Source: an uncultured Candidatus Saccharibacteria bacterium (GTDB taxonomy: Bacteria > Patescibacteriota > Minisyncoccia > Phycocordibacterales > 2-02-FULL-43-11). From it: a stretch of 64,000 nt of DNA. The stretch spans positions 1,188 to 65,187 of the forward strand of contig CAYGDO010000005.1 of assembly GCA_964348785.1 (NCBI GenBank). The letters run 5' to 3'. Below, piece by piece: positions 27,880 to 46,036 of this stretch. Positions within the stretch are counted from its first letter, which is position 1. Each line of letters begins with the position of its first letter. Made by a program: the position numbers and the translations under genes. Under the pieces are notes generated by a model, which made no database searches, was not told where the DNA came from, and worked only from the letters and a program-made list of their open reading frames with translations.

Positions 27880-27906
27880 ATTTATATTAACGTTTTTTAG
27901 GTTTTT

Positions 27907-27937: not shown

Positions 27938-27958
27938 ATATTTAATTCAATTAAGATG

Positions 27959-27997
27959 CTAGCCGAGATGCCTTGTTAAATAAGGCTATCTCGGCTA
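27959..27997. repeat. Nested perfect inverted repeat (TAGCCGAGAT-GCCTTgttaaatAAGGC-ATCTCGGCTA) with no T-tract.
   Basis: A 10-bp outer stem encloses a 5-bp inner stem. It lies in the 690-bp non-coding region upstream of the giant gene. Confidence 0.4.
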
Positions 27998-28574
27998 TGA
28001 AACATATATCTTTTAAGGATTTATATTTTGGGTTTCATACAAAAGGAGGAAAAGTTTTTAAATTTATCTCATGAATCCAAAGGTGCTTTTTCTGTTTTAT
28101 TATCGATGTTATTCAAACACCTTCCTCCGGAACTATTTTTAAATTGATAAAGTCTAAATAGCACCAACCTTTAATTTTGTAGGCCGTAAAACCACGCATA
28201 ATGCCTCAAGATGGCCTTTTCGAATGTGTTTATGGATCCGTTTTGGCTTACCGGTAGAGAGTTATCGCAATCCTTTGTTTTTAATGCCCCGAAACTTTAG
28301 CTATCGTTAGAATTAAGGCCTGTTTTTTTATGGGTTTTAGGACTTATGGGGTAACTGTTTGGGGTAATTAATTTTTTGCTAAAAAATATGAATTTTTGGC
28401 TCATTTTTGGTCTAGTTTTTTGGGGGCGTGCTACGAGTTTGTAATTTTCAATTTATTGACAATATCGGATATCCGAGATGGCCTTATTTATACACAGTTT
28501 TGCTATTAATCTCGGGCTCTATAAGAGGTATAATTTATGTACTTAAGAAATCTTTTTCCAATATATAAATAATA

Positions 28575-31500
28575 ATGTCTGCTGGATTGAAAATTGAAGA
28601 TAGAAAATTTATACCCTCGAAGGATGCTTCGAAGTTATCTGGTTATGCTCCGGATTATATTGGTCAGCTTTGTAGAGGTGGAAAACTTGAATGTAGAAGG
28701 GTAGGCAGATCCTGGTTTGTTGAAGAAACCTCTTTGGTTAAACATTGCCAAATTAACGGCAATGATAAACCTCTAACTCAGGAGTCGGTACCGGGTTATA
28801 AGTCTTCCGGTTTTGAAATTGAGGACAAAGACAGGGTTTATGTGGCTTCGGACTTTAAAGTTGAGAATAAACAAGAGAATGAAAAAACAGCTCTCCCAAA
28901 GGTTGAGGAAATAAAATCCCTTTCTAACGTTGTCATTTTAGAAAACTCAAAAATTAGCCCATCTTCTTCCGGTGCATTGAGTTTAAAGAACAACCTAAAG
29001 ACCAGTCTTTTGAAATTGCCAAAGTTCCCAAAGATTGATCCTGACTTTTTGCATAAAATTTATTCACTCACTGTTTCAGTCGCTGTCGTTACTTTTGTCT
29101 TTTTTGCTAGAGGTTCTTCTTTTACCGAAACAGTTTCTTTATTTGCAAAAAATTCTTTTGATAACTTGAATTCTGGTTTTGTGGCTTTGGTTCAAGATTT
29201 TAGTAATTTGACCCCAAAGGTTTTGGCCAATAATTTTGCTTACGGTTTTGAAAATAAAATAGACAAAAAAGAATCCGGATTGATTTCTAGTTTTGTGAAT
29301 CATCAAGTATTCAATTTTGGGAAAAAAGCTTCTCTTGTTTTTAATACAACTAAATTTGCTTCTTTGGAGTTTAAAGATAATCCTATCGGTTTTGGTAAAA
29401 ATACCGCTTTAGTAATTTTTGAAAATAGTTCAAACAAGGTTTCAGGTTTGGCAAAAAATATTTCTGGTATGCCAGATAGATTTGCTTTTTACTTGTCTAG
29501 TCAAAAAGTTTTAATTAATGATTTGATGGTTGTTACGGCTTCAATTTCTGAAAGTCTTAAACAAGATCCTCTTTTCCCAATTAAAGAATTTGCTAAGAAC
29601 GTAAATTTGGAAACAGATAAGTACATTAACAATGGCAAAAATTTTGTTTTGAGTTTGTTTGATAGAAGCAAATTACCAAATCAATTTATCGTGGTTTATA
29701 AAGTTGATGGAACTAAAAAATTACAAAAGACTCCTGCTTCACAGATTTACATTGAAGGACCAAGACAGGTTGTGCAAAACGTAACGCAACAAATAAAAGT
29801 TTCTGGAGTGACAAAGGAAGAAGTCGAATCAATGCTTGCTTCTTTAAATACAAAACTTTCAAGTGAAATTTATAAAATATCAAGTGCCACAAATAGTAAT
29901 GGCGTTTATATAAATAATGTTTACAATACTGTTTCTCATACAAACAAAATAGATAAATTGGGTTCTATTGAAATCTCTAATTCCACAATTACCGGTTCAA
30001 CATTTAGCGGAACAACTGGAGTTTTCTCTGAATCAGTTTCTATCGGTGGAACATTGGCAGTAACTGGATCTTCAACTTTCTCAGGTAATACAAATTTTGA
30101 TTCTGGAGTTTTATATATTGATTCTGTAAATAACAGAGTTGGAATTTCAACCACAACTCCGGGATTTACTCTTGATGTTGATGGAACAATTAATGCGACA
30201 GCTTTGTATGTTAATGGTTCTCCTTACATAGGCAGTCAATGGACAACTTCTGGCACTGATGTTTATTACAACGGTGGAAATGTTGGCATCGGCACATCTT
30301 CCCCTTATGGGTTGCTTTCTGTCGTCGGTGAAATTATTGCAGAAAAATTTACAGCCACTTCAACTACAGCAACAAGCACTTTTGGAGGAGGTTTGTCGGT
30401 TTTGGGCAATATAAATTTTAATGGAGAGCTTCTTCAAGACAATGCTCCATTTGTTGGTAGTCAATGGACTAGCACTTCAACTGGAGTTTATTACAATTCT
30501 GGTAACGTTGGAGTAGGTACAACTTCTCCAACTGATTTGTTTTCAGTCGGTGGAGTAGTTTATATTGCTTCAACCACTTCACCATCTGTAGCTACTAACA
30601 GACTTTATAATTCCTTTGGAGATTTATATTGGAATGGAAATCTTTTGAGTTCTGGATCAATTGGCACTTGGACATCTTCTGGTGGAAATGTTTATCGTGG
30701 TTCAGGATTTGTCGGAATTGGTAGCACAACTCCTTTTGTGACATTAGCTGTTGGTGGTGATGCTTATGTTGACGGCAATTTAACTGCTTCAAACATAACA
30801 GCAACTGGCACTGCAACATTTAGAAATATTTTGGCAACATCTTCTACCACCCTCCAAAACTTCACTTTCCAAAATGCTACAGGTACACAAGCAACTACAA
30901 CTAATTTCTTCTCTTCAATCTTTAACGGCATCACAGGAATCTTTTCTTCTTTAACTTCTGGTTCTGCCACTTTCGGTTCGTTAACGGCAACATCTTCAGT
31001 AAATCTTTCTTATGCTGGCGCTGGTAATAACATGCTCCTCACCACAGATGGATCAGGAAATGTTGTTGGAAGTTCTACTCCACAAGTGGCTTCGATTAAT
31101 GCGACAAGTACGACGGCGACTTCCACATTTACAAATTTATTTGCTAATCAATCAATTCTTGGGACTATTATTGGCGGCACTTGGAACGGTTCTACGATCG
31201 CTCAATCTTATGGTGGTACAGGATTTAGTTCATACACCGCTGGAGATGTTTTGTATGCAAATGGTTCTGGCAATTTAACAAAACTTCCAATTGGAGCTGA
31301 TGGTTTGGTTTTGAAAATCACTGGCGGTCTTCCAGATTGGCAGGCAGATGTGACTAATAGCGGAGCGGCGGGATTGTGGGCAACATCAACTGACAGTCTA
31401 GTTCTTTATCCTACTGATTCGGCAGACGTTTTAGTTTTAGGAGGAACTGCTACCACTACAACTGGAAATATTTTAGAAGTTATTGGTAATTCAAGATTAG

Positions 31501-34500
31501 GTGGCACAGTTTCTGTCGGAGCCACAACAACACCTTCCGCTTCTTTGTCTATAAACGCTTTGGCCGGGCAAGATTCATTCTCTATTGGCTCTTCAACTTC
31601 TTCGTATTTCTTGGTTAACAAGAGTGGAAATGTTGGAATTGGGACAACTAGTCCTGTAACTAAACTAGCAATTACCACATCTACAGGTGCTGATGGTCTT
31701 ATTGCTGGAAATTCTTTTGTTGGTAACTGGAATGATATATCAACATACGCCGTTTTTTCTCACAGTAATTTCAGAGTAAATGGTTCTACAAACAATTATG
31801 CCTTAATTCAGGATTCTACTGGCGAGACATATTTAAATGCAGCTTCTGGAAAGGAAATTCGTTTTGCTTTGGCTGGAACGAGAGCAATGGTATTGGATGA
31901 TAACGGCAATCTTGGAATAGCAAGTAATACCCCTTATGCAAAATTATCTGTAACTAACACGGGAACAAACCCGTCATTTTTGGTGGAAGATTCAACTTCA
32001 TCAGACTCAACGCCATTTATTATTGATGCGAGTGGAAATGTTGGTGTCGGCACCACTACTCCAAATTGGAAATTATCAGTAGCAGGGATCGGATCATTTG
32101 ATGATTATATTAGAGCCTCATATTTTACTGCGACTTCAACTTTAAGAGCTTCAACTTTTCCATATGCATCAACAACCGCTCTTTCGGTTTCTGAAAATGC
32201 ATATTTTCCAAATAATGGAATTTGGAATGAAAATGGCGATCTTGGTGTAGGGACGACCTCACCTTCTTCAAATTTTTCTGTTTCTGGAAATGCTTATATA
32301 ACTTCGACTTTAGGCATTGGCACAAACGATGTGCCACAAGGACAATTAAGGGTGGCTGGGGATACTCAAGGTTTATTGTATGTTTCTCAACTTGGAGCAG
32401 CGGATGATGAGAAGAACTGGTATTTTGACGCAGAAGGAGGTGATTTATATTGGGGAATAAACAACGATGCTTTTTCTGGAGGTGCTAATTATGCAAGAAT
32501 TTCTAGGACGGGAGTAAGCATTGATGCTTTTGAAGTGATGTATGGTTATAACAACCAAGCATGGTTTAAGCAGGAAGTGGCGGGTATTCAACCTTATACT
32601 AACTCTCCAACAGCTCGTTGGCATATAAGAGCGGGTTCAACCGCTGCAAGTAGCGCCCCTCTCAAAATAGATTCCGGTCCATTGATGACCAGTCCTGAAA
32701 TCGGAGCTATAGAATTTTTGACTGATAAGTGGTATGGAACTATTACTACCGGCACATCAAGAAAAGAATTTACGTTAAATGACCAAGTTTTGACTTCGGG
32801 TAGAGTTCCTTTTGCAACAACCAATGGTAGATTGACTGATGATACGGATTTAGTTTTCACAGGCTCTAATCTTGGAATTGGAACTTCTACTCCTTACGCA
32901 ATGTTGTCTGTTGCTGGAGAAGTTGTGGCTCAAAACTTTACTGCCACTTCTACAACCGCCACATCAACATTTGCGGGAGGTATTACAGGACCAGGAAGTT
33001 TTACTGTTCAATCTTCAAGTGGAAGAGTTGGAGTTGGTACAACTTCTCCTTATGCTTTGCTTTCGGTTCATGGGCTTGGAGCTTTTGATTACATCAATGT
33101 TAATGCCACAACTTCCACTTCAACTATCTCTGGTGGTTTAAGTGTTGGAGGAGGTGCTTTAAATTACGATTTTTCTTCAGGAGTTACTTCAATAAATGCC
33201 TTAGAAATGGGGGCTTTGAATTTTGAAGCAGATGCTGGGCAGGTAAGCTGGGCTGATCTAACAGTTACATCAGCTTCAGTTGCCGGTTTAGCTCAAAGTT
33301 ATTCAGCGCAAATAAATAGCAATCCAATTTTGACAATTTTTGGTGAGGCAGATGGGGCAGGTGGAGTCAGAAATACTTTGGCCGTTGGTATCGGCACCAC
33401 ATCTCCACTTCATCAGTTAGATATTTTGGCTGGTTCAACAACTGATTTTACAACAGGAAAAACTGCTAATTATTATGGTATTAACGTAAGCAATCAAGCG
33501 ACCTCTTCAACAGCATCAATTATAAAATCAGGTATCAATATTACTTCTACGGGTAGTTGGTCGGGCACTTCCGCTTCAAATATTGGATTGTATGTTTCTT
33601 CTGTCACTGGAGGTACAAATAATTATGACGCCATATTTAATGGTGGTGGAAATGTTGGAATTGGCACGACTTCACCTTTTGCTAAATTATCGGTTGCAGG
33701 AGCTTCACTTTCAACTTCACCGGTCTTTGCAGTTTCTACTTCAACCGCCTCAGCAACTTCAACCGCCTTCATCATTGATTCAAACGGAAAGGTAGGAATC
33801 GGCACTTCCACTCCGTCTCAACAACTATCAGTTCAAGGTAACGGTTACTTCACCGGCAACTTAATTGCTAACACTCTTCAGTTCTTAGGTATTGGAAACA
33901 ATATGATGCTTGTTACTGATGATTCAGGAAATGTTGTTGGAAGTTCAACTCCACAAGTGGCTTCGATTAATGCAACAAGTACAACGGCAACTTCCACCTT
34001 CGCCGGCAACCTCTCAGTCGGAGGAAATTTGAATTTCAACGGAGCATTTTTGCAAAACGGTTCTCCGTTTGTTGGTAGTCAGTGGACAACAAGTGGTTCA
34101 AATATTTACTACAATACTGGCAACGTCGGCATCTCATCATCAACTCCAGTAAACACTCTTGATGTCGGTGGTTGGATCGGTGTTGCAACTGCTTACGGAT
34201 TTAAACAAGGCACCACAACCGCCCTCATCGCCTCATCAACCACTTACGGAACATTTGTCGGAGGTAACGCTGGAAAATCAACAAACTCCACAGGACTATA
34301 CAACACAGCAGTTGGATACAACTCTGCATTTACAAACACTACTGGAAGCTCCAACACATCTTTGGGATACAACTCACTCTTCACCAACACAGGTGACTCA
34401 AACGTAGCACTCGGTGAAAACACACTTTATCTAAACGGAACTGGTTCATACAACACAGCTGTCGGTACTCGTTCTCTATATACTAATAGTACAGGTGCCA

Positions 34501-37500
34501 ACAACACCGCTCTTGGTTTCGGTGCTCTCTATACCAACACTGCTTCAAACAACGTAGCTCTAGGTATGCACTCTCTCTACTACAACTCATCAGGTGCTGA
34601 CAATATTTCTATTGGTTATCAATCTTCATACTCAAACGACACAGGAGGAAAAAACACAGTCATTGGTACTCAAGCTCTCTACACCAACTTCTCTGGAGCT
34701 AACAACACAATCTTAGGATACAAATCAGGTTATGCCGTAGACACAGGAGCCAACAATATATTGTTAGGTTATCAAGCTGGTGATGCTATTACATCAGGAT
34801 CAAACAACATTGTCTTAGGTTATGACATTGACGCTCCTTCAAACACAGACAGCAATCAATTGAACATCGGTAACATAATCTTTGGTACATCTATTGATGG
34901 AACAGGGACAACCATTTCATCAGGCAACATCGGCATCGGTACAACATCTCCTGGTCAAAAACTTTCTGTCGCCGGTGACATTCTTGGAAACAATATTATT
35001 GGTCAATACTTTACTGCGACTTCTTCAAGTGCAACCAGCACTTTCGCAGGAGGTATCACAGGGCCTGGAAGTTTTACTGTTCAATCTTCAAGTGGAAGAT
35101 TGGGAGTGGGGACTACATCGCCTTACGCTTTTCTATCAGTTAATTCAAATGGTTTAACTGGTCCAGCTTTTAACATTGGTTCATCAACGCAAACCAATTT
35201 TGAGATATCAAATGTGGGAAGTATGACTGTAAGAAACACACAATTTGGTGCAACACATAATATCATCGCGAGAGATCTTACTTATAGTTTTACTGATGGT
35301 TCGGGTAGTGGTCTTGGAATTGGTACAGGTATGTATTTAGCACCAGGTCAAATTAGATTGGGAACCAGTGTTATTAATTGGACAGGAGACCCAGCAGTGG
35401 TTGGCAACAGTAATAGTATAGGTCTTGCTTATCAAGCCAAGGGATTTTTGAGAGTTACAGATGGCAGCTCGGGTTTTGGTAATTTAATTTCAAATGCTAT
35501 CGGGGTGAGTACAACATCACCTTGGGCTGTTCTTTCTGTCGCCGCTTCTTCTACAAATTCAAACAGCATTCCTTTATTTGCAGTTTCGACTTCTACCGCC
35601 TCCGCCACTTCTACCGCTTTCATTATTGACGCAAACGGAAAAGTTGGAATCGGAACAACAACTCCGTATACACAACTTGCTGTACAAGGTGGAATTGCAG
35701 GAGACTATTTGAATATTAATGCCACAACTTCCACTTCAACTATCTCTGGTGGTTTGAGTGTTGGGGGAGGCTCTTTGGTTTATGATTATTCTTCAGCTTT
35801 GACTTCGATTAATGGACTTCAGATTAGTGGAACTTTGAAGTTTGATACTGATGCAGGTGTAATAAATTGGATAGATTTACCAATTTCTGCCGCTGCAAAT
35901 AATGCGCCACAAAGCTACTCAGCCAACATCGGTTCAACCGAAGTTTTCACAGTCTACGGCGAAGCAGACGGATCAGGAAACTCCAAAAACCTAAGAGTTG
36001 GAATCGGCTCTACCACTCCTATGGCAAAACTCTCTGTCTCTGGAACAACCACTTCTTCAACAAGTTGGGCATTTGCTGTTGCTGATGTAGCTTCATCAAC
36101 TAAATTCATAATAAGAGACGATGGGGTAATAGGTGTTGCCACAACCACACCTTGGGGACTCTTTGCAATCAATCCAAATGGTGTCACAGGCCCTTCATTT
36201 GTTGTCGGCTCTTCAACTAGAACTGACTTTGTTGTGAACAATGATGGAAAAGTTGGAGTTGGTGGAACAACGACACCTTGGACCGCTCTTGCTATTAATG
36301 CACAAGCTGGCACTGATTCATTTGCCATCGGTTCTTCCACCTCTTCATACTTTATTGTTAACAAGAGTGGAAATGTTGGAGTAGGAACATCAACACCTTC
36401 TGTCGGTCTTCATGTTTATAAAAATTTTCAGACATATCAGCAATTGGCATCAACAATGGTTTTAGATTCTGATTCGTATACGGGTTTAGTTTTGTCAGAA
36501 GGTGGTAATTCAAAATGGGCAATTAGGACTCAGTCAAATTCTAATAGTGATTTGATCTTTCTAAGAAATAGCGGTACATCAGCCTCTCCTTCTTGGGATA
36601 CAGACAATTTAGTTTTTCAAAGGTCAACTGGTAATATTGGTATTGGCACCACATCTCCTGGTCAGACATTGTCTGTCGCCGGTGACATTCTTGGAAATAA
36701 CATTATCGGTCAATACTTCACTGCAACTTCTTCAAGTGCCACTTCAACATTTGCTGGGGGAATTACTGGGCCTAATAGTTTTACTGTTCAATCTTCAAGT
36801 GGAAGATTGGGAATTGGCACTTCTTCTCCATGGACATCATTAGCCATTGAAGCAACAGCGGGTCAGGATTCTTTCTCTATCGGCTCTTCAACATCGTCAC
36901 ATTTTACGATTAATAAGAGTGGGGTTGTGAATATAAACAATGGGCCTATTAGTGCAACGAATGTGCCATTGATAGTTAGAGATACAACTAATGATGGGGC
37001 CTCTTCGATTAAAGTTACATCTAATAATAATAGCCAGATTGCATTAATTGGACCTACTGCATTTAGTTCTAATACTGTTTTGACCATTAGTGCAACAGGC
37101 GGCGGGGCACTTCAACTCCAGAATTATAGTACTGGACCTGTAACCATTGGTACTAACGGGGGCACAGAGAGATTTAGAGTTAATAGTGCCGGGCTTGTTG
37201 GTATTGGTGCATCATCTACTCCATGGGCGTTACTTTCTGTTAATCCTAATGCTCACACATCTGGCCCTTCATTTGTTATTGGTTCTTCAACTAAAACTGA
37301 TTTTGTTGTTGCTAATGATGGTAAAGTTGGAATAGGTACGACTTCACCTTCTCAAGAATTATCGGTTCAAGGCAACGGATATTTTTCAGGTAACGTCATT
37401 ACATCTGGTTCTCTCACAATAAATGATTGGTTAAATCTTCCAGCAGGTTATGGTATTAAACAAGGCACCACCACAGCCCTCATCGCTTCATCAACCACCT

Positions 37501-40500
37501 ACGGAACATTTGTCGGAGGTAACGCTGGAAAATCAACAAACTCCACAGGACTATACAACACAGCAGTTGGATACAACTCTGCATTTACAAACACTACTGG
37601 AAGCTCCAACACATCTTTGGGATACAACTCACTCTTCACCAACACAGGTGACTCAAACGTAGCACTCGGTGAAAACACACTTTATCTAAACGGAACTGGT
37701 TCATACAACACAGCTGTCGGTACTCGTTCTCTATATACTAATAGTACAGGTGCCAACAACACCGCTCTTGGTTTCGGTGCTCTCTATACCAACACTGCTT
37801 CAAACAACGTAGCTCTAGGTATGCACTCTCTCTACTACAACTCATCAGGTGCTGACAATATTTCTATTGGTTATCAATCTTCATACTCAAACGACACAGG
37901 AGGAAAAAACACAGTCATTGGTACTCAAGCTCTCTACACCAACTTCTCTGGAGCTAACAACACAATCTTAGGATACAAATCAGGTTATGCCGTAGACACA
38001 GGAGCTAACAACACACTCTTAGGTTATCAAGCAGGTGACGCTATCACATCAGGATCAAACAACATTGTCTTAGGTTATGACATTGATGCTCCTTCAAACA
38101 CAGACAGCAATCAATTGAACATCGGTAACATAATCTTTGGCACAAACATTAGTGGAACTGGCACCACTATTTCAACAGGTAACATTGGTATCGGCACAAC
38201 ATCACCAGGTCAAAAACTTTCAGTTGCTGGAGATATTCTTGGAAACAATATTATTGGTCAATACTTTACTGCGACATCGACTACTGCGACGAGTACGTTT
38301 GCGGGGGGTATCACAGGACCAGGAAGTTTTACTGTTCAATCAGACAGTGGGAGATTGGGTGTGGGCACGACTTCACCTTCAGCTTTACTTTCTGTTAACG
38401 CTTCCGCCGGTAATGATTCCTTCTCTATCGGCTCATCAACTTCTTCATATTTCATTGTTAACAAGAGTGGGAATGTGGGAGTGGGTACGACTTCGCCTTC
38501 TGCAAAATTGTCAGTTAAAGGTGATGGGACAACAACGGGCAGAGCCTTTGCCATTTCAAATTCATCTGGAGCAGAAAAGTTTACTGTATTAGACAGTGGA
38601 AACGTCAGACTTGGCGTTGGTGCTAATGCTGCTGCTACAAAATTGGAGATAATCGGTTCGGATTCTTCATCTTCAGTGGGGACAGAGGATGAGATTAAAT
38701 TGATTCGCCCACTATTATCATTGGAATATCCAAAAGTTGCATCATTTAAACTTGGTAAATGGGACCCTGGCAATTTAACTTCAAGTTCTAGACTCGATAT
38801 AGCATTAAAAAATGGAGCCAACGGAACTTATGATGCTGATACGACAGTTATGTCTTTTCTTTCAAGCGGTAATATTGGTATTGGTACAACATCTCCATAT
38901 GCAATGCTTTCTGTTGCTGGTGAAGTCGTGGCTAAAAATTTCACTGCCACATCTACAACTGCTACATCAACATTCGCTGGCGGAATAACTGGACCAAATA
39001 GTTTTACTGTTCAGTCTTCAAGTGGAAGGTTGGGTGTTGGCACATCTTCTCCGTGGACATCATTAGCTATTGAAGCGACAGCAGGTCAAGATTCTCTTGC
39101 TATTGGTTCCTCAACTTCTTCATATTTTGTGGTTGATAAGAGTGGAAATGTGGGTATTGGAACTAGTAGTCCTATGTATAAACTTAATTTGAAAACAGCT
39201 ACAGCTAATTATGGTTTTATGCATACTGATGGTTCTGTAGAGTTAGGTACTTTCGTATGGAATACAGGCAGTCTTCCGGGTGGATGGATTGGAACAAAAT
39301 CTAATCATGATTTACATCTTTTCACTAATAATAGTAATCCTTTAGCAACTCTTGATACTTCTGGAGATTTTGGTATAGGTACCACTTCTCCATACGCAAA
39401 ATTATCCGTAACAAACACAGGCACAGAACCATCATTTTTGGTGGAAGACTCAACTTCTCCAGACTCAACACCGTTTATTATTGATGCTTCAGGACAAATG
39501 GCACTTGGGACTTCAACCACTCTTGAAAAGTTTACTCAGTCGGGTGGGTATTTCCGACTTACTTCTGGAGCAACCAATGGTGATGGGGTAAATAATGGAA
39601 CGTATTTTACTGATTCAACTGGTAATAATGAACTTATGCAAGCAACAGGGGGTAAGCCAACTTATTCATCAGGATATAAAGTTACTCCAGCAGGAACAGC
39701 GGCCACTATTCAATTAAATACCGCCACTGCTTTTAATTGGTATATACCAACTGGATTAAGCGCAGGCTCAACATCTGGTGATTTAACTGGAATAACTACA
39801 AATACAATGGTGTTTAACAGTTCAGGAAGATTGGGTATTGGCACCACTACGCCATATGCCAGACTTTCTATAAACGGAGCTTCAACTGGAACAGACAATT
39901 TATTTTTGGTAGCCACTTCTACCGCTTCTGCCACCTCAACCGCATTCATCATTGATTCAAACGGAAAAGTGGGAGTTGGTACAACTTCTCCTTATGCACA
40001 ACTTTCAGTTCAAGGAATAATCGCAGGACAAAGTTTTAATGCTGATAATGCTTCCGCTACCAGTACTTTTGCTGGAGGTTTCAATGTTGGTAACGGTTCA
40101 ATATTGTATGATTGGAATTCAGGCACAACTTCTATTCCTTATCTTGAAATTGGTGCACAAAATTTTGCCGCTGATTCTGGTATTGTCTCTTGGACTGATT
40201 TACCAATAACCTCTTCTTCTGCTAATAATTCTGTACAAAGCTACTCTGCCAACATCGGTTCGACCGAAGTTCTAACAGTCTACGGCGAAGCCGACGGATC
40301 AGGTAATTCCAAAAACCTAAGAGTCGGAATTGGTTCAACCACTCCTATGGCAAAACTTTCTGTCTCTGGTACAACAACATCATCAACAAGTTGGGCGTTT
40401 GCAGTAGCTGATGTTTCCTCATCAACCAAATTCATAATTAGAGATGACGGAGTAATAGGAGTCGCTACCACCACTCCTTGGGGACTCTTTGCAATCAATC

Positions 40501-42782
40501 CAAATGGTGTAACAGGCCCTTCATTTGTTATTGGTTCTTCAACTAAAACTGATTTTGTTGTGAACAATGATGGGAATGTTGGTGTCGGTACCACTTCTCC
40601 ATATGCAAAACTTTCTGTAACCAACACAGGCACAGGGCCATCATTTTTGGTGGAAGATTCAACTTCTCCAGATTCAACACCTTTTGTTATTGCAGATGAT
40701 GGTGATATTGGTATAGGAACTAGCACTTCAAATCTTGGTTCTTATAGATTATTTATTGATTCTCCAAATTCACAAACTTTAGGAATAAAAAATTCAGTAA
40801 CCACCAACCAACCTGAAATGCTGACAATGACTGCTTCAGACAACTCTGTTTTAGCTATTAGATATAACGAAGCTGCTCCAACTAACGCTGTCCCCGCAGA
40901 TGTTTGGGAATATAGATCAGGAGGTTCAGGAAGAAAGCAAGTTTTTTCTTACTTTAGTCTTTATCCAACATTGACAGTAGACACTGCGGCTTCAAGAGGT
41001 GGTATCGGTATTGGTACTACTACTCTAGGTTCTAAACTTTCTGTTGCTGGTTGGTCTGATGATACTGCCGGAACTGCTTTAATGTTGATTTCAACTTCTA
41101 CTGCTTCTGCTACTTCTACTGCTTTCGTAGTTGATTCAAACGGAAAAGTTGGAATTGGTTTAAATAATCCTCAGTCGCAACTTCACATATCAGGCAATGT
41201 ACTTTTAAATAACGGACAAGCGTTCCAGGTAGTAGATAGTGCCGGTACTAATAGAAGCGTCTTAACGATGTCATCGGCAGATAACGTCACTTTAGCTGGC
41301 AGGTCAGGGGTGTCAGATATAAATATAATAAGTTCCACTACTTTTATAGTTAAGTCTTCAGGTGCTATTGGTATCAACGATACTACTCCTGATTTCAAAT
41401 TTGAATTAAACGGGCAAACTGGAAGTGGATATTTTGGTATAACACAAGCTGTCGATGGAGATGTGTTTCAAGTTGGAGCTAACGGATTAGTGGGTATTGG
41501 AACATCAACTCCTTTCGCCAAATTATCAGTTTCGGGAACTTCACTTTCAACTTCACCGGTCTTTGCAGTTTCCACCTCCACAGCCTCAGCAACTTCAACC
41601 GCCTTTATTATTGATTCAAACGGTAAGGTTGGAATCGGAACAACTTCACCTTGGACCACCTTCTCTGTAAATGGCGGAGTTGCGATGCCAAGTTTGACCG
41701 CTGAAAGTACTTCAGGAAGCGCTGTTTGTTTGGATGCGGGAGGGGAGCTCCAAGTAAACACAGGTCTTCAAACTTGCACAGTGTCATCTATTAGGTATAA
41801 GACAGATATAAATAATAATACTGGTGGTCTAAGTACGATTCTTGCTCTTAAACCTTCCGCCTTCAAATATAAAGATGGTGACGGAAAAGAAAGAATTGGA
41901 TTTGTAGCCGAAGATGTTGAAAAGATTGACCCAAGACTTATTGCTTTAGGAAGAGACGGTTTACCTCAAGGTGTTCGCTATGAAGATATCACCGCGGTTC
42001 TCACAAAGTCCACTCAAGATATTGCTTTTATACTTTCTTTGGCTTCAAGCACGGATGGCACATTTAGATCAGTTCGTTTGGATGATTTGGAAAAGAGAGT
42101 TTCTGATTTGGAAAATAGAAATGTTGCCAATGTGAGCTCTTCCGGCTCTAATATTTCTTTGCAAGGTGCAGTTGATGCAGTCGTTACATACTTTGAATCA
42201 TTGGGTGTAAAAATCTCAAACGGTGTCGCTGAATTTAAGAAAATTATTACTGAAAACTTTGAAGTGGGAAGTTCCGCAAGACCGGCAGGTATCACTTTGT
42301 ATGATGAGGAAACAAAAAATCCTTATTGTTTTAAGATTTTAGGTGGCGTGGCCACAAGCACTCCTGGCTCTTGTGATTCTATTGTTCCAATTGATTCTGC
42401 TACAAGCACTCCTTCAACTCCGGGGGATGTCGCTTCAAGTACCGCCGATGTAATTCCTCCAGTTATTACTTTGCTTGGCAATAATCCAGCAGAGATTGCC
42501 AAAGGAACTTCCTATGTTGATGTTGGTGCAACCGCAACTGATAATTCTGGAATGAGTATCATGCCAGATATTATTGAAAATACAGTTGATACTTCTGTTG
42601 TCGGCGAATACCGAGTTGTTTATAGCGCTCACGATGCCTTGATGAATATTTCAACAAGTACTCGTATTGTGAAAGTTTTTGATCCGTACGCTCCGATTGT
42701 TCCTGTAGAACCACCAGTTACAACAACTGAACCAATTATTGATAATACTGTATCAACAAGTACAGCAACCAGCACAGAATAG
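28575..42782 (+). CDS. Giant (4735 aa) membrane-anchored surface fibre protein. Order: N-terminal excisionase-type HTH; single TM; long β-helix/β-roll-like repeat region; C-terminal peptidase-S74 intramolecular-chaperone domain; terminal Ig-like (DUF5011-type) domain.
   Basis: One uninterrupted 14.2 kb ORF. Residues about 20-55, YAPDYIGQLCRGGKLECRRVGRSWFV, are HTH_17-like. TM helix IYSLTVSVAVVTFVFFA at about aa 160-180. More than 40 copies of the GNVGIGTTSPxxKLSV(A/S)G motif, plus 16-17-residue N..G.. repeats (NTAVGYNSAFTNTTGSS...). C-terminus SIRYKTDI...LKPSAFKYKDGDGKERIGFVAEDVEKIDPRLIA...GVRYEDITAVL...LEKRVSDLENR matches the phage tail-fibre/endosialidase S74 chaperone. Final PPVITLLGNNPAEIAKGTSYVDVGATATD... 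is DUF5011-like. Confidence 0.85.
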   Translation: MSAGLKIEDRKFIPSKDASKLSGYAPDYIGQLCRGGKLECRRVGRSWFVEETSLVKHCQINGNDKPLTQESVPGYKSSGFEIEDKDRVYVASDFKVENKQENEKTALPKVEEIKSLSNVVILENSKISPSSSGALSLKNNLKTSLLKLPKFPKIDPDFLHKIYSLTVSVAVVTFVFFARGSSFTETVSLFAKNSFDNLNSGFVALVQDFSNLTPKVLANNFAYGFENKIDKKESGLISSFVNHQVFNFGKKASLVFNTTKFASLEFKDNPIGFGKNTALVIFENSSNKVSGLAKNISGMPDRFAFYLSSQKVLINDLMVVTASISESLKQDPLFPIKEFAKNVNLETDKYINNGKNFVLSLFDRSKLPNQFIVVYKVDGTKKLQKTPASQIYIEGPRQVVQNVTQQIKVSGVTKEEVESMLASLNTKLSSEIYKISSATNSNGVYINNVYNTVSHTNKIDKLGSIEISNSTITGSTFSGTTGVFSESVSIGGTLAVTGSSTFSGNTNFDSGVLYIDSVNNRVGISTTTPGFTLDVDGTINATALYVNGSPYIGSQWTTSGTDVYYNGGNVGIGTSSPYGLLSVVGEIIAEKFTATSTTATSTFGGGLSVLGNINFNGELLQDNAPFVGSQWTSTSTGVYYNSGNVGVGTTSPTDLFSVGGVVYIASTTSPSVATNRLYNSFGDLYWNGNLLSSGSIGTWTSSGGNVYRGSGFVGIGSTTPFVTLAVGGDAYVDGNLTASNITATGTATFRNILATSSTTLQNFTFQNATGTQATTTNFFSSIFNGITGIFSSLTSGSATFGSLTATSSVNLSYAGAGNNMLLTTDGSGNVVGSSTPQVASINATSTTATSTFTNLFANQSILGTIIGGTWNGSTIAQSYGGTGFSSYTAGDVLYANGSGNLTKLPIGADGLVLKITGGLPDWQADVTNSGAAGLWATSTDSLVLYPTDSADVLVLGGTATTTTGNILEVIGNSRLGGTVSVGATTTPSASLSINALAGQDSFSIGSSTSSYFLVNKSGNVGIGTTSPVTKLAITTSTGADGLIAGNSFVGNWNDISTYAVFSHSNFRVNGSTNNYALIQDSTGETYLNAASGKEIRFALAGTRAMVLDDNGNLGIASNTPYAKLSVTNTGTNPSFLVEDSTSSDSTPFIIDASGNVGVGTTTPNWKLSVAGIGSFDDYIRASYFTATSTLRASTFPYASTTALSVSENAYFPNNGIWNENGDLGVGTTSPSSNFSVSGNAYITSTLGIGTNDVPQGQLRVAGDTQGLLYVSQLGAADDEKNWYFDAEGGDLYWGINNDAFSGGANYARISRTGVSIDAFEVMYGYNNQAWFKQEVAGIQPYTNSPTARWHIRAGSTAASSAPLKIDSGPLMTSPEIGAIEFLTDKWYGTITTGTSRKEFTLNDQVLTSGRVPFATTNGRLTDDTDLVFTGSNLGIGTSTPYAMLSVAGEVVAQNFTATSTTATSTFAGGITGPGSFTVQSSSGRVGVGTTSPYALLSVHGLGAFDYINVNATTSTSTISGGLSVGGGALNYDFSSGVTSINALEMGALNFEADAGQVSWADLTVTSASVAGLAQSYSAQINSNPILTIFGEADGAGGVRNTLAVGIGTTSPLHQLDILAGSTTDFTTGKTANYYGINVSNQATSSTASIIKSGINITSTGSWSGTSASNIGLYVSSVTGGTNNYDAIFNGGGNVGIGTTSPFAKLSVAGASLSTSPVFAVSTSTASATSTAFIIDSNGKVGIGTSTPSQQLSVQGNGYFTGNLIANTLQFLGIGNNMMLVTDDSGNVVGSSTPQVASINATSTTATSTFAGNLSVGGNLNFNGAFLQNGSPFVGSQWTTSGSNIYYNTGNVGISSSTPVNTLDVGGWIGVATAYGFKQGTTTALIASSTTYGTFVGGNAGKSTNSTGLYNTAVGYNSAFTNTTGSSNTSLGYNSLFTNTGDSNVALGENTLYLNGTGSYNTAVGTRSLYTNSTGANNTALGFGALYTNTASNNVALGMHSLYYNSSGADNISIGYQSSYSNDTGGKNTVIGTQALYTNFSGANNTILGYKSGYAVDTGANNILLGYQAGDAITSGSNNIVLGYDIDAPSNTDSNQLNIGNIIFGTSIDGTGTTISSGNIGIGTTSPGQKLSVAGDILGNNIIGQYFTATSSSATSTFAGGITGPGSFTVQSSSGRLGVGTTSPYAFLSVNSNGLTGPAFNIGSSTQTNFEISNVGSMTVRNTQFGATHNIIARDLTYSFTDGSGSGLGIGTGMYLAPGQIRLGTSVINWTGDPAVVGNSNSIGLAYQAKGFLRVTDGSSGFGNLISNAIGVSTTSPWAVLSVAASSTNSNSIPLFAVSTSTASATSTAFIIDANGKVGIGTTTPYTQLAVQGGIAGDYLNINATTSTSTISGGLSVGGGSLVYDYSSALTSINGLQISGTLKFDTDAGVINWIDLPISAAANNAPQSYSANIGSTEVFTVYGEADGSGNSKNLRVGIGSTTPMAKLSVSGTTTSSTSWAFAVADVASSTKFIIRDDGVIGVATTTPWGLFAINPNGVTGPSFVVGSSTRTDFVVNNDGKVGVGGTTTPWTALAINAQAGTDSFAIGSSTSSYFIVNKSGNVGVGTSTPSVGLHVYKNFQTYQQLASTMVLDSDSYTGLVLSEGGNSKWAIRTQSNSNSDLIFLRNSGTSASPSWDTDNLVFQRSTGNIGIGTTSPGQTLSVAGDILGNNIIGQYFTATSSSATSTFAGGITGPNSFTVQSSSGRLGIGTSSPWTSLAIEATAGQDSFSIGSSTSSHFTINKSGVVNINNGPISATNVPLIVRDTTNDGASSIKVTSNNNSQIALIGPTAFSSNTVLTISATGGGALQLQNYSTGPVTIGTNGGTERFRVNSAGLVGIGASSTPWALLSVNPNAHTSGPSFVIGSSTKTDFVVANDGKVGIGTTSPSQELSVQGNGYFSGNVITSGSLTINDWLNLPAGYGIKQGTTTALIASSTTYGTFVGGNAGKSTNSTGLYNTAVGYNSAFTNTTGSSNTSLGYNSLFTNTGDSNVALGENTLYLNGTGSYNTAVGTRSLYTNSTGANNTALGFGALYTNTASNNVALGMHSLYYNSSGADNISIGYQSSYSNDTGGKNTVIGTQALYTNFSGANNTILGYKSGYAVDTGANNTLLGYQAGDAITSGSNNIVLGYDIDAPSNTDSNQLNIGNIIFGTNISGTGTTISTGNIGIGTTSPGQKLSVAGDILGNNIIGQYFTATSTTATSTFAGGITGPGSFTVQSDSGRLGVGTTSPSALLSVNASAGNDSFSIGSSTSSYFIVNKSGNVGVGTTSPSAKLSVKGDGTTTGRAFAISNSSGAEKFTVLDSGNVRLGVGANAAATKLEIIGSDSSSSVGTEDEIKLIRPLLSLEYPKVASFKLGKWDPGNLTSSSRLDIALKNGANGTYDADTTVMSFLSSGNIGIGTTSPYAMLSVAGEVVAKNFTATSTTATSTFAGGITGPNSFTVQSSSGRLGVGTSSPWTSLAIEATAGQDSLAIGSSTSSYFVVDKSGNVGIGTSSPMYKLNLKTATANYGFMHTDGSVELGTFVWNTGSLPGGWIGTKSNHDLHLFTNNSNPLATLDTSGDFGIGTTSPYAKLSVTNTGTEPSFLVEDSTSPDSTPFIIDASGQMALGTSTTLEKFTQSGGYFRLTSGATNGDGVNNGTYFTDSTGNNELMQATGGKPTYSSGYKVTPAGTAATIQLNTATAFNWYIPTGLSAGSTSGDLTGITTNTMVFNSSGRLGIGTTTPYARLSINGASTGTDNLFLVATSTASATSTAFIIDSNGKVGVGTTSPYAQLSVQGIIAGQSFNADNASATSTFAGGFNVGNGSILYDWNSGTTSIPYLEIGAQNFAADSGIVSWTDLPITSSSANNSVQSYSANIGSTEVLTVYGEADGSGNSKNLRVGIGSTTPMAKLSVSGTTTSSTSWAFAVADVSSSTKFIIRDDGVIGVATTTPWGLFAINPNGVTGPSFVIGSSTKTDFVVNNDGNVGVGTTSPYAKLSVTNTGTGPSFLVEDSTSPDSTPFVIADDGDIGIGTSTSNLGSYRLFIDSPNSQTLGIKNSVTTNQPEMLTMTASDNSVLAIRYNEAAPTNAVPADVWEYRSGGSGRKQVFSYFSLYPTLTVDTAASRGGIGIGTTTLGSKLSVAGWSDDTAGTALMLISTSTASATSTAFVVDSNGKVGIGLNNPQSQLHISGNVLLNNGQAFQVVDSAGTNRSVLTMSSADNVTLAGRSGVSDINIISSTTFIVKSSGAIGINDTTPDFKFELNGQTGSGYFGITQAVDGDVFQVGANGLVGIGTSTPFAKLSVSGTSLSTSPVFAVSTSTASATSTAFIIDSNGKVGIGTTSPWTTFSVNGGVAMPSLTAESTSGSAVCLDAGGELQVNTGLQTCTVSSIRYKTDINNNTGGLSTILALKPSAFKYKDGDGKERIGFVAEDVEKIDPRLIALGRDGLPQGVRYEDITAVLTKSTQDIAFILSLASSTDGTFRSVRLDDLEKRVSDLENRNVANVSSSGSNISLQGAVDAVVTYFESLGVKISNGVAEFKKIITENFEVGSSARPAGITLYDEETKNPYCFKILGGVATSTPGSCDSIVPIDSATSTPSTPGDVASSTADVIPPVITLLGNNPAEIAKGTSYVDVGATATDNSGMSIMPDIIENTVDTSVVGEYRVVYSAHDALMNISTSTRIVKVFDPYAPIVPVEPPVTTTEPIIDNTVSTSTATSTE

Positions 42783-42803
42783 TTTTTTGATTTAAGATAA
42801 GAT

Positions 42804-43322
42804 ATGAAAAACAAACCAAACAATTATGCGTTCATAGACAGTCAGAATGTTCACAAGGGAATTAAACATCTTGGTTGGGATATAGATTGGTACAGATTTT
42901 TGGTGTATCTAAAAGAAAAATATAAAGTAAGTGCAATATATTTATTTATTGGTTTTGTGCAAGAGAATCAAAAACTATACGAATATCTTCAAAAGTGTGG
43001 CTATATATTAATTTTCAAACCAATTATATTTGATGGTGAAGGGAAAGTTAAAGGGAATTGTGATGCTGATTTAGTATTACACACTCTCTTGAAAATTAAT
43101 GAATATGAAAAAGCGGTAATTGTTACGAGCGATGGTGATTTTTACTCACTTGTTAGACATTTATATGAGCAGAAAAAACTTGAAATGGTGTTAAGTTCAT
43201 ACGTTAAGACTTGTTCAAAACTTTTAAAAAAGGAGGCAAAAGAGAAGATAAATTATATGGATAATCTTAGGAACAAAATAGGCAGAAATGAAAATGCACC
43301 GCATAAGGACGGAACCTTATGA
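42804..43322 (+). CDS. NYN-domain (LabA-like) putative RNase.
   Basis: YAFIDSQNVHKG...NCDADLVLHTL...AVIVTSDGDFYSLVRHL matches NYN/PIN-like conserved Asp positions. Confidence 0.65.
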   Translation: MKNKPNNYAFIDSQNVHKGIKHLGWDIDWYRFLVYLKEKYKVSAIYLFIGFVQENQKLYEYLQKCGYILIFKPIIFDGEGKVKGNCDADLVLHTLLKINEYEKAVIVTSDGDFYSLVRHLYEQKKLEMVLSSYVKTCSKLLKKEAKEKINYMDNLRNKIGRNENAPHKDGTL

Positions 43323-43399
43323 AGTGCATTTTCTTATGGATAAGCATTATGTTAGTAAATATTTATGGGTAAGTCAATGTTTGATATTTAGATAAAAAA

Positions 43400-45610
43400 A
43401 TGAAAATCGCTTACAAAAATACGTTAGAAAATAAGGACAAAATTAAGGTCGTTATATCAAGGTCGAACCTTGATATCAAGGTTCGACCTTGGACAAAATT
43501 GATATTTTTATTATTTTTTATCTTTTGTTTTTTTGGTATTTTTAGTTTTGCTGATGCTGTCGTGGTTAATACTACAAATAAAGACACTTTAAGAAACGGC
43601 TTAGTTGGCCACTGGACCATGGACGGTAAAGACGTAGTAAGCGGAGTACTCCAAGACAAAAGTGGAAATGGAAACAGTGGTCGATTGGTAAACATTGCCA
43701 CTTCTACTTTCTATACCTTGGGCAAAATTGGTCAGGCGTTTAGGTTTAGTAAGAATCTTAGTCAATACGTTACTATTCCTGATAATTCATCTTTTGATAA
43801 CACTTCAACATTGTCATTTGGAGGTTGGTTTTATCTTGATAGTTTGGTTTCTTTTAATACCATAATATGTAAAAGGGTGGGTAGTTCTGATAATCATTCT
43901 TTTTGTGTGTTTGCCGATAGCTCTGGGAAATTAAATATTGATATTGACGGTTTTGGAGATAGATTTACTAGTACCGCAACCTTATCTCCGAAGAAATGGT
44001 ATCAATTTATGGTGGTTTATGATGGAAATTTGGTCTCAACTGAGCGCGCTAAATTGTATATCAACGGAACACTTGATAGGAGTGCTACCGAAACGAGTTC
44101 TTCAGTACCAAATTACACTTCCACCCTAAGGTTTGGTGAGTTGCAGGGAAATAGTGCAGGGTATATGGGTGGAAAGATTGATGATATTCGTATCTACAAC
44201 CGCGCTCTATCAGCTTCAGAAATTACTCAACTATATAACCAAAGCGCGGGTGACAAAATTAACTCCACTCCAAAAGGCATACCAGCGAGCGGTCTTAACT
44301 CCGGCCTCGTCGGCTGGTGGACAATGGATGGTAAAGACGTAGTCAACGGAGTACTCCAAGACAAAAGTGGAAATGGAAACACGGGAAATTTGGTAAACAT
44401 TGCCACTTCTACTTTCTATACTTTAGGTAAGATAGGTCAGGCGGGGAAGTTTGATGGGAGTGATGATGTTATCGTCGCATCTAGTGATCTTGTCGGTACA
44501 GGAGCAGATTCTATCTGCGCGTGGATTAAACCATCGGGTTGGGGTGAGGGTGGTTTCGGTAGATTGTTTGATAATAGCGTAATGTGGTTTTATTTAGTTC
44601 AGACAGGTCAATCTTTACGCTTTACATCAAACCAATCCAGTGGTTTCTATTTTGATACCACTTCAAGCAGTATCAAGCTAAACCAGTGGCAACATGTATG
44701 TGCGGTCAGAGATGCATCAGGAAGTGGTATTGTTTATATTAATGCTGTTTCTAATAATACTGGCAATACAGGCACTCCCGCAGCTGGTTCCACTTCGTAT
44801 ATAGGTAATCGCGCCGCCGGCGATAGGGCGTTTAATGGATTAATCGACGACGTTCGCATCTACAACCGTGTACTTTCCGCATCAGAAATTACTCAACTAT
44901 ACAACCAAGGAGCTGGCGACAAAGTAAACTCCACCCCCAAAGGTGTTGCAACCCAAGGTCTCAACTCCGGCCTCGTCGGCCACTGGACCATGGATGGTAA
45001 AGACGTAGTCAATGGAGTACTTCAAGATAAAAGTGGAAATGGAAACAGTGGTCAGTTGGTAAACATCGCCACCTCTACTTTCTATACCTTAGGCAAGATC
45101 GGTCAGGCGTTTAAGTTTGATGGGGTCAATGATTATGTAAATTCAAATTACAAGTTTAATTTTGGCACATCGCCTTTTGCGGTTTCGTTTTGGATTAACA
45201 CAAAAATAGCGGTTGCGTTCCGTCCCATCATTGGAGAAGTGCATAACACTCTTGCCTCTTGGACGGTTACCTTTTCTAATCTGACAACAGGCACTCTAAG
45301 TATGCAAATTTATGATGGTTCAGGAACCGATACTGCAACAACAAATGGAACAACAAAAATCAACGATGGAAAATGGCATCACATTGTAGCGTTTCGTAAT
45401 GGTTCAACACTTAATATTTATGTTGACGGGCGTTTGGAAGTTACCCCGGCAACTGACAATCAGAGAAATTATGGCACAAATGCTAATTTTGCAATGATGG
45501 CAAGAGCTGATTCGTTCCTTCCTAATGGTGGAAAATTAGACGACGTTCGTCTTTACAACCGTGTGCTTTCTGCTTCTGAAATTACACAGTTATATAATTT
45601 AGGCCGTTAA
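43400..45610 (+). CDS. Secreted/membrane-anchored protein with three tandem LamG-like (concanavalin A-like lectin/glucanase, PF13385-type) domains; paralog 1 of 4.
   Basis: An N-terminal hydrophobic signal/anchor (LIFLLFFIFCFFGIFSFADA). Three repeats each begin LVGHWTMDGKDVV..DKSGNGN.G.LVNIATSTFYT.GKIGQA.KFDG and end DD(I/V)RIYNR.LSASEITQLYNQ, the LamG_3 hallmark. The 5' coding region contains the REP palindrome. Confidence 0.8.
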   Translation: MKIAYKNTLENKDKIKVVISRSNLDIKVRPWTKLIFLLFFIFCFFGIFSFADAVVVNTTNKDTLRNGLVGHWTMDGKDVVSGVLQDKSGNGNSGRLVNIATSTFYTLGKIGQAFRFSKNLSQYVTIPDNSSFDNTSTLSFGGWFYLDSLVSFNTIICKRVGSSDNHSFCVFADSSGKLNIDIDGFGDRFTSTATLSPKKWYQFMVVYDGNLVSTERAKLYINGTLDRSATETSSSVPNYTSTLRFGELQGNSAGYMGGKIDDIRIYNRALSASEITQLYNQSAGDKINSTPKGIPASGLNSGLVGWWTMDGKDVVNGVLQDKSGNGNTGNLVNIATSTFYTLGKIGQAGKFDGSDDVIVASSDLVGTGADSICAWIKPSGWGEGGFGRLFDNSVMWFYLVQTGQSLRFTSNQSSGFYFDTTSSSIKLNQWQHVCAVRDASGSGIVYINAVSNNTGNTGTPAAGSTSYIGNRAAGDRAFNGLIDDVRIYNRVLSASEITQLYNQGAGDKVNSTPKGVATQGLNSGLVGHWTMDGKDVVNGVLQDKSGNGNSGQLVNIATSTFYTLGKIGQAFKFDGVNDYVNSNYKFNFGTSPFAVSFWINTKIAVAFRPIIGEVHNTLASWTVTFSNLTTGTLSMQIYDGSGTDTATTNGTTKINDGKWHHIVAFRNGSTLNIYVDGRLEVTPATDNQRNYGTNANFAMMARADSFLPNGGKLDDVRLYNRVLSASEITQLYNLGR
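43454..43490. repeat. REP-like nested palindrome, copy 1 (TATCAAGGTCGAACCTTGATATCAAGGTTCGACCTTG), inside the 5' coding region of the LamG gene.
   Basis: The 19-bp unit ATCAAGGTCGAACCTTGAT is followed by its reverse complement. The same element is found at 46131, 50652, 52927 (half copy) and 53617. Confidence 0.75.
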
Positions 45611-45716
45611 CCCCGTTAGAGATTTAACATCATTAAGTTTTGTAACGTAACTACTAATTAGAGTAACCCATGTATAATTTAGTAACATATAAAAAGTAAA
45701 TGAATCTCTAACGGGG
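45611..45716. repeat. 14-bp perfect inverted repeat pair (CCCCGTTAGAGATT ... AATCTCTAACGGGG) enclosing a 78-bp AT-rich segment with a TGTATAAT -10-like box, directly upstream of the GIY-YIG gene.
   Basis: Arms at 45611-45624 and 45703-45716 match exactly as reverse complements. TATAAT at 45673-45678. Confidence 0.5.
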
Positions 45717-45727
45717 TAGATAAAACT

Positions 45728-45988
45728 ATGATTTATACTTACATACTAAAAAGCGATAAAGATGGAATGTTATATACAGGTTGCACGTCAGATTTACGGA
45801 AGCGTTTTAAGGAGCATAATGCTAACAAGGTTGTTGCGACTAAATCTCGGGGGCCGTTTACTATTATCTATTACGAAGCTTGTATAGATGATCATGACGG
45901 TTTTACTAGAGAGAAATATTTGAAAACGGGTATGGGTAAAAGATATTTAAAAAATCGTTTAAAACGCTTCCTTACTCTAACGGTCTAA
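45728..45988 (+). CDS. Small GIY-YIG nuclease-superfamily protein (UPF0213/YhbQ-like).
   Basis: IYTYILKSDKDGMLYTGCTSDLRKRFKEHN matches the GIY-(10-11)-YIG motif plus conserved Arg and Glu. 86 aa. Confidence 0.75.
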   Translation: MIYTYILKSDKDGMLYTGCTSDLRKRFKEHNANKVVATKSRGPFTIIYYEACIDDHDGFTREKYLKTGMGKRYLKNRLKRFLTLTV

Positions 45989-46036
45989 AGGAAGATAAGA
46001 AGATAAATCAAAAATGAAAAATCAAATATCATAAAT

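Follow-up and report, generated by a model that had tools for sequence, protein, structure and literature searches.

Old duplicated modules and a probable recent gene-conversion tract in a giant fibre-like gene of a Patescibacteria chromosome

The catalytic Ser-Lys dyad of S74 chaperone-proteases follows the motif S-D-x-x-x-K, and in Bdellovibrio bacteriovorus 13 of the 21 mosaic adhesive trimer (MAT) fibres end in such a domain (Caulton et al. 2024, PMC10769870). The MAT fibres are cellular, are borne on the surface of a cell-attacking bacterium and have a mosaic, modular build, and their constructs and cleavage sites fall within about 1,030 residues (PMC10769870). Concerted evolution of repeats is described for the spidroins of spider silk (PMC3933166 and PMC3563967) and for the FLO adhesins of yeast (PMC3512402). 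In this study, we analysed a giant gene in a 64,000-nucleotide stretch of the chromosome of an uncultured member of the Patescibacteria (GenBank assembly GCA_964348785.1, contig CAYGDO010000005.1, positions 1,188 to 65,187 of the forward strand), which is referred to as the window and to which all positions below refer. The gene is a single unbroken open reading frame (ORF) of 4,735 codons (28575-42782) on the + strand, as are all of its features described below, and it contains two pairs of internal repeats. Its product of 4,735 amino acids (aa) appears, from the ORF, the Pfam and PHROG matches and the motifs, to be a membrane-anchored, fibre-like surface protein. We give a probability of about 0.75 to the reading that the repeats are ancient in-frame module duplications under purifying selection, together with one recent intragenic gene-conversion tract.

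Both repeat pairs, which a preceding sequence-only reading had pointed out, were recovered by self-blastn at the positions given there and are far beyond chance. Copy A of pair 1 occupies 34193-35143 and consists of a "head" (aa 1874-2116) and a "neck" (aa 2117-2190), and copy B occupies 37448-38398, i.e., 3255 bp (1085 codons) 3′ of copy A. The two copies align without gaps over 951 bp with 92.96% identity, which is distributed very unevenly along the alignment. An exact core of 506 bp with 0 mismatches (34245-34750 in copy A, corresponding to aa 1891-2059, and 37500-38005 in copy B) is the longest exact repeat of the 64-kb window, and the runner-up is 67 bp. The identity is 96.4% over the 724 bp at 34193-34916 and approximately 82% over the final 227 bp, which form the neck. 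The description of pair 1 as roughly 700 bp of essentially identical sequence is close, but near-identity in DNA holds for only part of the 951 bp (93.0% overall). All 67 mismatches lie outside the core, with 7 in the 52 bp on its 5′ side and 60 in the 393 bp on its 3′ side.

The mismatches in the flanks of pair 1 are ordinary neutral divergence. Fifty-four of the 67 are at codon position 3 and 30 are transitions; several kinds of substitution occur (C>T 13, T>A 13, T>C 9, A>T 7, among others), with no adenine bias. Diversity-generating retroelements (DGRs) are common in Patescibacteria and target surface proteins, so that a programmed system, either a DGR with its template and variable repeats or antigenic variation by means of cassettes, might be considered as the source of the two copies. 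However, the differences are not adenine-specific and are mostly synonymous third-position changes, both copies are translated within one ORF, and no reverse transcriptase was seen among the scanned neighbouring genes. DGR-type mutagenesis is excluded by this mixed, third-position spectrum, and programmed diversification in general is extremely improbable.

The synonymous (dS) and nonsynonymous (dN) divergence of pair 1 was calculated by the method of Nei and Gojobori. In the core, dS is 0, as none of the 127.7 synonymous sites differ (95% upper bound of about 0.023), whereas dS is 0.62 in the 5′ flank, 0.41 in the rest of the head (34752-34916) and 1.0 in the neck (34917-35141). dN is about 0.03-0.05 throughout the pair. 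In 200,000 permutations with random placement of the 67 mismatches, the longest clean run averaged 64 bp and never exceeded 225 bp, compared with the 506 bp observed, and an analytic bound for a mismatch-free run of this length gives P of about 5e-21. The sequence-only reading had taken both pairs for young duplications produced by recent unequal recombination, with copies that are only starting to diverge. The exact 506-bp repeat and the 96% identity over about 720 bp of pair 1 are in line with this, as is the in-frame position of the copies, both offsets (3255 and 4326 bp) being multiples of 3. A young duplication, however, predicts a low and roughly uniform divergence. Because the 506-bp run is far beyond the permutation maximum and the flanks have a dS of 0.4-1.0, a uniform young duplication is contradicted.

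Pair 2 leads to the same result independently of pair 1. Copy 1 is located at 35573-36263 and includes a 118-codon core at 35910-36263 ("QSYSANIGSTEV..."), and copy 2 is located at 39899-40589 with its core at 40236-40589, at an offset of 4326 bp (1442 codons). The self-blastn alignment has 697 positions with 77.5% identity and 4 gaps, and its best 300 bp are 86.3% identical. In the core, 95.8% of the amino acids and 88.1% of the nucleotides are identical, with a dS of 0.57, a dN of 0.019 and a dN/dS ratio of 0.034; beyond it, the similarity decreases to 50-70% and dS is above 1. A third, diverged copy of the module ("SYSAQINSNPILTIFGEADG...") was found by alignment at approximately 33162-33680, with 41% amino acid identity to copy 1, and the module is also present, with 42% identity, in a related Paceibacteria locus (L025). 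Pair 2 is thus best read as an old duplication under strong purifying selection, because its core combines a dS of 0.57 with a dN/dS of 0.034, a diverged third copy exists, and the module occurs in L025. The claim that pair 2 is nearly identical in DNA does not hold, and the protein identity, seen in the translation, appears to have been taken for nucleotide identity. Pair 2 and the 3′ third of pair 1 both fall below 90% nucleotide identity, which the sequence-only reading had itself set as the limit for near-identical copies.

The neck of pair 1 belongs to a larger family. Alignment gave three further members, E at 32862-33071, C at 36630-36851 and D at 38868-39074, which form with the 3′ parts of copies A and B a five-member family in the order E, A, C, B, D. 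Their pairwise nucleotide identity is 69-82%, and their third-position identity is 0.38-0.58 (A-B 0.51, A-C 0.53, C-D 0.58). The neck parts of A and B are old paralogues, because the third positions of A are not more similar to those of B than to those of C. For both pairs to be young, the neck of A should not be equally far from B and from paralogue C, nor should pair 2 show a dS of 0.57 and an overall identity of 77.5%. With a dS of 0.41-1.0 for the pair 1 flanks and of 0.57 for the pair 2 core, against a dN of about 0.02-0.05, the attribute "young" is not supported for either pair, and their origin by recent unequal recombination is highly improbable. Nucleotide self-comparison of the giant gene also shows a 61-nt motif family with at least 21 copies and, in addition to the two pairs, approximately 29 internal similarities that are weaker (67-91% identity). 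The modules were delimited from motifs and alignments. Exact runs of 34-47 bp between paralogous modules were considered as additional conversion tracts and rejected, as a rough calculation showed them not to be clearly beyond chance at 82-88% identity with multiple testing.

Surface-protein genes frequently recombine between strains, and the mosaic of pair 1 alone cannot show which of its segments is new. The head could accordingly be a young duplicate whose flanks were later exchanged with a diverged allele from another strain, in which case the divergence of the flanks would represent the distance between strains. On the other hand, this requires at least two imports that end at both edges of the core, compared with one conversion, and the saturated divergence extends across all five neck paralogues, so that old paralogy accounts for the 3′ flank. 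Pair 2 independently shows old divergence, and such an import is very unlikely.

The exactness of the core could also originate from assembly or polishing, if differing cores had been merged to a consensus or if the true number of 3,255-bp units were different. The assembly is of the metagenome type, and giant repeat-rich genes are known to fragment or misassemble in short-read data (West-Roberts et al. 2023). The Logan short-read assembly of run ERR3094292, which is from the same population and was assembled independently, was covered by two contigs, L081 and L082, which match the window with 100% identity over 21458-29002 and 41543-43439, respectively, and both of them end within the giant gene. 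The restart at 41543 is inside a 31-mer block that is repeated at 33703-33736. L081 ends at 29002 in the non-repetitive N-terminal region, where there is no 31-mer that is repeated within the window; strain variation, lower coverage or a repeat in another part of the genome may account for this end. The warning in the sequence-only reading that the repeats are a hazard for assembly is supported by these contig ends. However, the flanks on both sides of the core are distinct, with codon-periodic, mostly synonymous differences and a preserved frame, and a collapse merges only nearly identical sequences, so that the core would still be far more similar than its flanks. Moreover, related genes in unrelated assemblies have high-identity internal repeats of a like kind. 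Because the flanks are distinct and codon-periodic, they prove, within the assembled sequence, that at least two head copies exist. An artefact could still touch the exact identity of the core or the copy number, i.e., the core may be 100% or merely about 99% identical and the copies may be two or more; an artefact of either kind is unlikely.

In the reading that we prefer, that of old modules with one recent conversion tract, the body of the giant fibre would consist of a small set of recurrent module types in mosaic order, the result of old duplication and shuffling. Purifying selection would have kept the protein of both copies while the synonymous sites drifted apart, and much later a recombination between the two heads would have copied at least 506 bp one way and erased the differences there. 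We infer this gene conversion as an event from the identity mosaic, and dS, which increases in steps from the core outwards (0, 0.41, 1.0), suggests repeated conversions whose tracts are nested. The sequence-only reading had proposed that the copies continue to recombine, and this is supported in a non-reciprocal form, as the 506-bp tract, and not as young duplication by unequal recombination. In the completed fibre, a single N-terminal transmembrane helix would serve as the anchor, and the S74 chaperone-protease would drive trimerisation and then cleave itself off. The trimeric architecture, the surface exposure and a role in the attachment to host cells are proposed by analogy with known S74 fibres.

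Several points weigh against the preferred reading. One assembly underlies both the exactness of the core and the copy number. The head module occurs only twice, and no outgroup was found that would give the conversion a direction; if a smaller segment had been duplicated again later and had landed exactly on the homologous site, this would formally be the same event. No close relative is available to calibrate the age of the duplications or the variation in the population, the nearest having 65% identity in GatB and 54-55% in the head. Trimerisation, surface display and S74 autocleavage are presumed from family resemblance, and position 2 of the catalytic motif in the giant protein is Ser, whereas the canonical S-D-x-x-x-K has Asp.

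A reciprocal crossover in the 506-bp core is predicted to delete or add 1,085 codons in frame, since the offset is exactly 1,085 codons, and to result in products of 3,650 or 5,820 aa; with an in-frame offset and an identical tract of 506 bp, the variation in fibre length put forward in the sequence-only reading is thus legitimate as a prediction. Frequent, tolerated changes in length are argued against because the two-copy arrangement is long-lived, which suggests that length variants are rare or selected against. It is conceivable, although doubtful, that the giant S74 fibre is the host-attachment organelle of an epibiont, analogous to the MAT fibres of Bdellovibrio, and that its identical heads act as a recombination switch, with fibres of 3,650, 4,735 or 5,820 residues in different cell lineages of the population; if this were true, it would provide variation in the length and valency of a host-recognition fibre in a genome of approximately 1 Mb.

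In the Pfam scan of the whole giant protein, only Peptidase_S74 and Bact_surface_Ig-like (a bacterial surface immunoglobulin [Ig]-like domain) were found, and PHROG tail-fibre families match the body of the protein. The body contains 41% Ser, Thr and Gly, and the protein has 35 motifs of the form G-x-V-G-I-G-T-x-x-P (GNVGIGTTSPxxKLSV type) at irregular spacing. In the region 28001-44000, the giant gene has a G+C content of approximately 41%, compared with approximately 33% in the housekeeping genes on both sides, and its GC skew falls to about zero. The high G+C content probably reflects the Gly-, Ala-, Thr- and Ser-rich composition; a foreign origin is also possible.

The Peptidase_S74 domain (PF13884), an intramolecular chaperone and putative autoprotease, is located at aa 4404-4455 (41784-41939) and was detected with an E-value of 2.7e-8 and a score of 34.4 bits (gathering cutoff, 22). 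Ser4404 and Lys4409 are in the catalytic positions with S-x-x-x-x-K spacing, in the sequence SSIRYK, and the domain weakly matches 6f45, the chaperone of a long tail fibre from a phage. The bacterial surface Ig-like domain (PF16403, E-value of 6.9e-13) is located at aa 4631-4701 (42465-42677), C-terminal of the predicted S74 cleavage site. In the C-terminal part of the gene (41784-42782, + strand), the S74 domain is followed by approximately 280 residues, which include a Ser/Thr-rich linker and this Ig-like domain. If S74 cuts at Ser4404 as in phage fibres, the Ig-like domain would leave with the chaperone and be absent from the fibre tip, which is unusual for the family.

At the N-terminus (28575-29114, + strand), approximately 55 residues with a weak resemblance to HTH_17, a helix-turn-helix (HTH) family, are followed by approximately 100 charged residues and then by the sole transmembrane segment. 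The HTH_17-like domain (aa 16-55, 28620-28739) has a Pfam E-value of 0.019, which is below the cutoff, and a homologue (P0128) bears PF12728. It is odd for a giant extracellular fibre to have an HTH-like domain in the cytoplasm. The transmembrane anchor is predicted at aa 158-180 (29046-29114) by a Kyte-Doolittle scan, in which this segment is the only 19-residue window of at least 1.6 in the whole giant protein. In a tblastn search with aa 1-114, approximately 9 gatB loci in other Paceibacteria matched with 34-67% identity, and the search for relatives with the N-terminal anchor gave 9 matches, mostly to partial proteins. The gatB-adjacent genes that share the fibre N-terminus are at loci L029, L030, L063, L045, L041, L034 and L073.

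An AlphaFold2 monomer model of the pair 1 head, built from an alignment of 46 sequences, has a predicted local distance difference test score (pLDDT) of 82 and a predicted template modelling (TM) score (pTM) of 0.78. The modelled fold is a β-solenoid of about 12 rungs or strands with a period of approximately 17 residues, and the span of the conversion tract (aa 1891-2059) takes in nearly the whole predicted solenoid. A fold search of BFVD with the head returned 97 predicted viral structures with E-values of 1e-3 or lower (best, 9e-17); the named ones are mostly phage or giant-virus [quoted passage not shown] proteins, and one is named a YadA-like head. No match to the head block was obtained in a sequence search of the PDB, and nothing significant was obtained in a fold search of the PDB, in which the top matches are the heads of trimeric autotransporters (E-values of 0.15-0.9, TM scores of 0.2-0.35) and MAT fibres are also among the weak ones (E-values above 0.1). 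The sequence homologues of the head, which have at most 55% identity, are named tail fiber domain-containing, trimeric autotransporter adhesin or endosialidase-like proteins, and PF13884 is common among them.

The giant gene is placed between gatB and an NYN-domain gene. Upstream are murB, secA, genes for an M29 peptidase and a MYG1-family protein, obg and gatB, and downstream are the NYN-domain gene, four genes for Laminin_G_3 proteins, gap, and the transketolase and aldolase genes. GatB assigns the organism to Patescibacteria/Paceibacteria. No GatB relative above approximately 65% identity was found among the GTDB representative genomes, the head block gave nothing better than 54% identity in a metagenome scan and a best homologue of 55% identity in a protein search, and neither the exact giant protein nor the LamG1 protein encoded downstream was on record. 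The Rfam and tRNA scans of the window gave nothing. A phage origin, which was suggested by the one-strand gene order and the PHROG hits, was rejected in view of the SecA, MurB, Obg, GatB and GAPDH neighbours and of the search against 50,697 phage records, which gave no DNA match.

Homologues that are adjacent to gatB and have the common N-terminal domain occur in several other Paceibacteria, and some of them are large ORFs with many GNVGIGTTSP-type motifs (L012, >2,070 aa; L019, 1,691 aa; L039, >1,450 aa). Internal repeats with high identity (90-98%) are present in related fibre genes from unrelated assemblies (L075, L099 and L104); the repeat in L075 is 541 bp at 97.4% in three copies, and that in L104 is 350 bp at 92%. 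Because related fibre genes in unrelated assemblies have them, such repeats are typical of this class of fibre genes. The ORF in L075 (12738-19635 of the locus; contig CAYSCM010000001.1 of a related Patescibacteria genome) is >2,299 aa long and is located downstream of gatB; it does not have the GNVGIGTTSP motif, and it contains three copies of a 300-540-bp repeat with 97-99% identity. These repeats are another case of recent internal homogenisation or duplication.

Directly downstream of the fibre gene (43400-52910, + strand) are four tandem paralogous genes for proteins of 736, 761, 701 and 766 aa, each with three Laminin_G_3 (concanavalin-like lectin) domains. The domain repeats within these genes have a DNA identity of 82-89%, and short exact runs, the longest of 67 bp, are common to the genes. 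The giant fibre gene and the four Laminin_G_3 genes form a block of approximately 24 kb for probable surface proteins. Further upstream (2163-10120, + strand) is a cluster that resembles those for the biosynthesis of nonulosonic (sialic-like) acids, with genes for a capsule-synthesis protein, an epimerase, NeuB, an aminotransferase, a cytidylyltransferase (CTP_transf_3) and a methyltransferase; it is followed at 11998-14283 by a gene for a protein with TPR repeats and a weak, sub-threshold match to IctB-family membrane proteins. The gene content of the cluster suggests that the cell surface is glycosylated, and the same genome encodes the "endosialidase-chaperone" fibre.

The protein identity of 96-97% between the repeats masked a saturated synonymous divergence, and the apparently young duplications are old selected modules; the sole truly young feature is the conversion tract. 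The exact 506-bp repeat at a distance of 3.3 kb flags the copy number of the 1,085-codon unit as assembly-sensitive. Old selected duplicates with a fresh conversion tract are in themselves unsurprising, and the host gene, as a possible attachment fibre, is of more interest. It is a member of a little-studied class, the phage-fibre-like S74 proteins encoded on Patescibacteria chromosomes, which are plausible host-attachment fibres of epibionts. Homologous recombination within such fibres shows a route to their remodelling, as is expected for repetitive adhesin genes.

Among the known systems, the giant protein resembles the S74-type trimeric fibres, i.e., phage tail fibres, endosialidases and the MAT-S74 fibres of Bdellovibrio. 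Proteins of the S74 type have a trimeric β-helical stalk ahead of the chaperone and undergo autoproteolytic release. As in the S74 fibres, tailspikes and endosialidases of phages, including the K1F endosialidase and the L-shaped tail fibre pb1 of T5, there is a significant Pfam match to S74, the predicted β-solenoid matches phage and giant-virus S74 models, and PHROG tail-fibre families are hit; Ser and Lys have the catalytic spacing, with Ser in place of the Asp of the motif. In contrast to the phage proteins, the giant protein is encoded in a bacterial chromosome amid housekeeping genes and outside a prophage, is four to ten times longer, has a predicted transmembrane anchor in place of the virion-attachment domain, and continues for approximately 280 residues, including the Ig-like domain, beyond S74.

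With the MAT fibres, the giant protein shares a cellular rather than viral nature, a mosaic build and an S74 domain, and MAT structures are among its weak PDB fold matches, although these matches to the head are not significant (E-values above 0.1). The MAT constructs and cleavage sites cited above fall within a far shorter length, and the N-terminus of the MAT fibres is composed of a signal peptide and a conserved β-rich domain of approximately 130 aa, whereas the giant protein begins with the weak HTH-like region and has its first hydrophobic segment at aa 158-180. Judging from the hydrophobicity and the HTH_17 match, and not from a direct comparison of the N-domains, the giant protein would not have the N-terminal architecture of the MAT fibres.

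The trimeric autotransporter adhesins (YadA, UspA1, BoaA and CbpF) have a repetitive solenoid head (N-x-A-x-G-x-x-A-L) followed by a neck, to which the predicted head and neck of the giant protein are similar, although the PDB fold matches to the adhesin heads are not significant; JGI gives the name trimeric autotransporter adhesin to many homologues. The head repeat of YadA is about 14 residues long, whereas the period of the giant-protein head is approximately 17. The giant protein is not a trimeric autotransporter, because the Pfam scan of its whole length contains no YadA-type C-terminal β-barrel anchor.

As in the spidroin and FLO genes, recombination keeps repeats alike in a long structural gene under selection, and the repeats cause problems in assembly. 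The spidroin and FLO repeats are tandem, while those of the giant gene are dispersed at a distance of 3.3 kb, and, unlike in the former, a single tract is homogenised, with synonymous divergence near saturation in most of the paralogous modules. The behaviour of the repeats in the giant gene is classical concerted evolution, as expected for repetitive fibre and adhesin genes.

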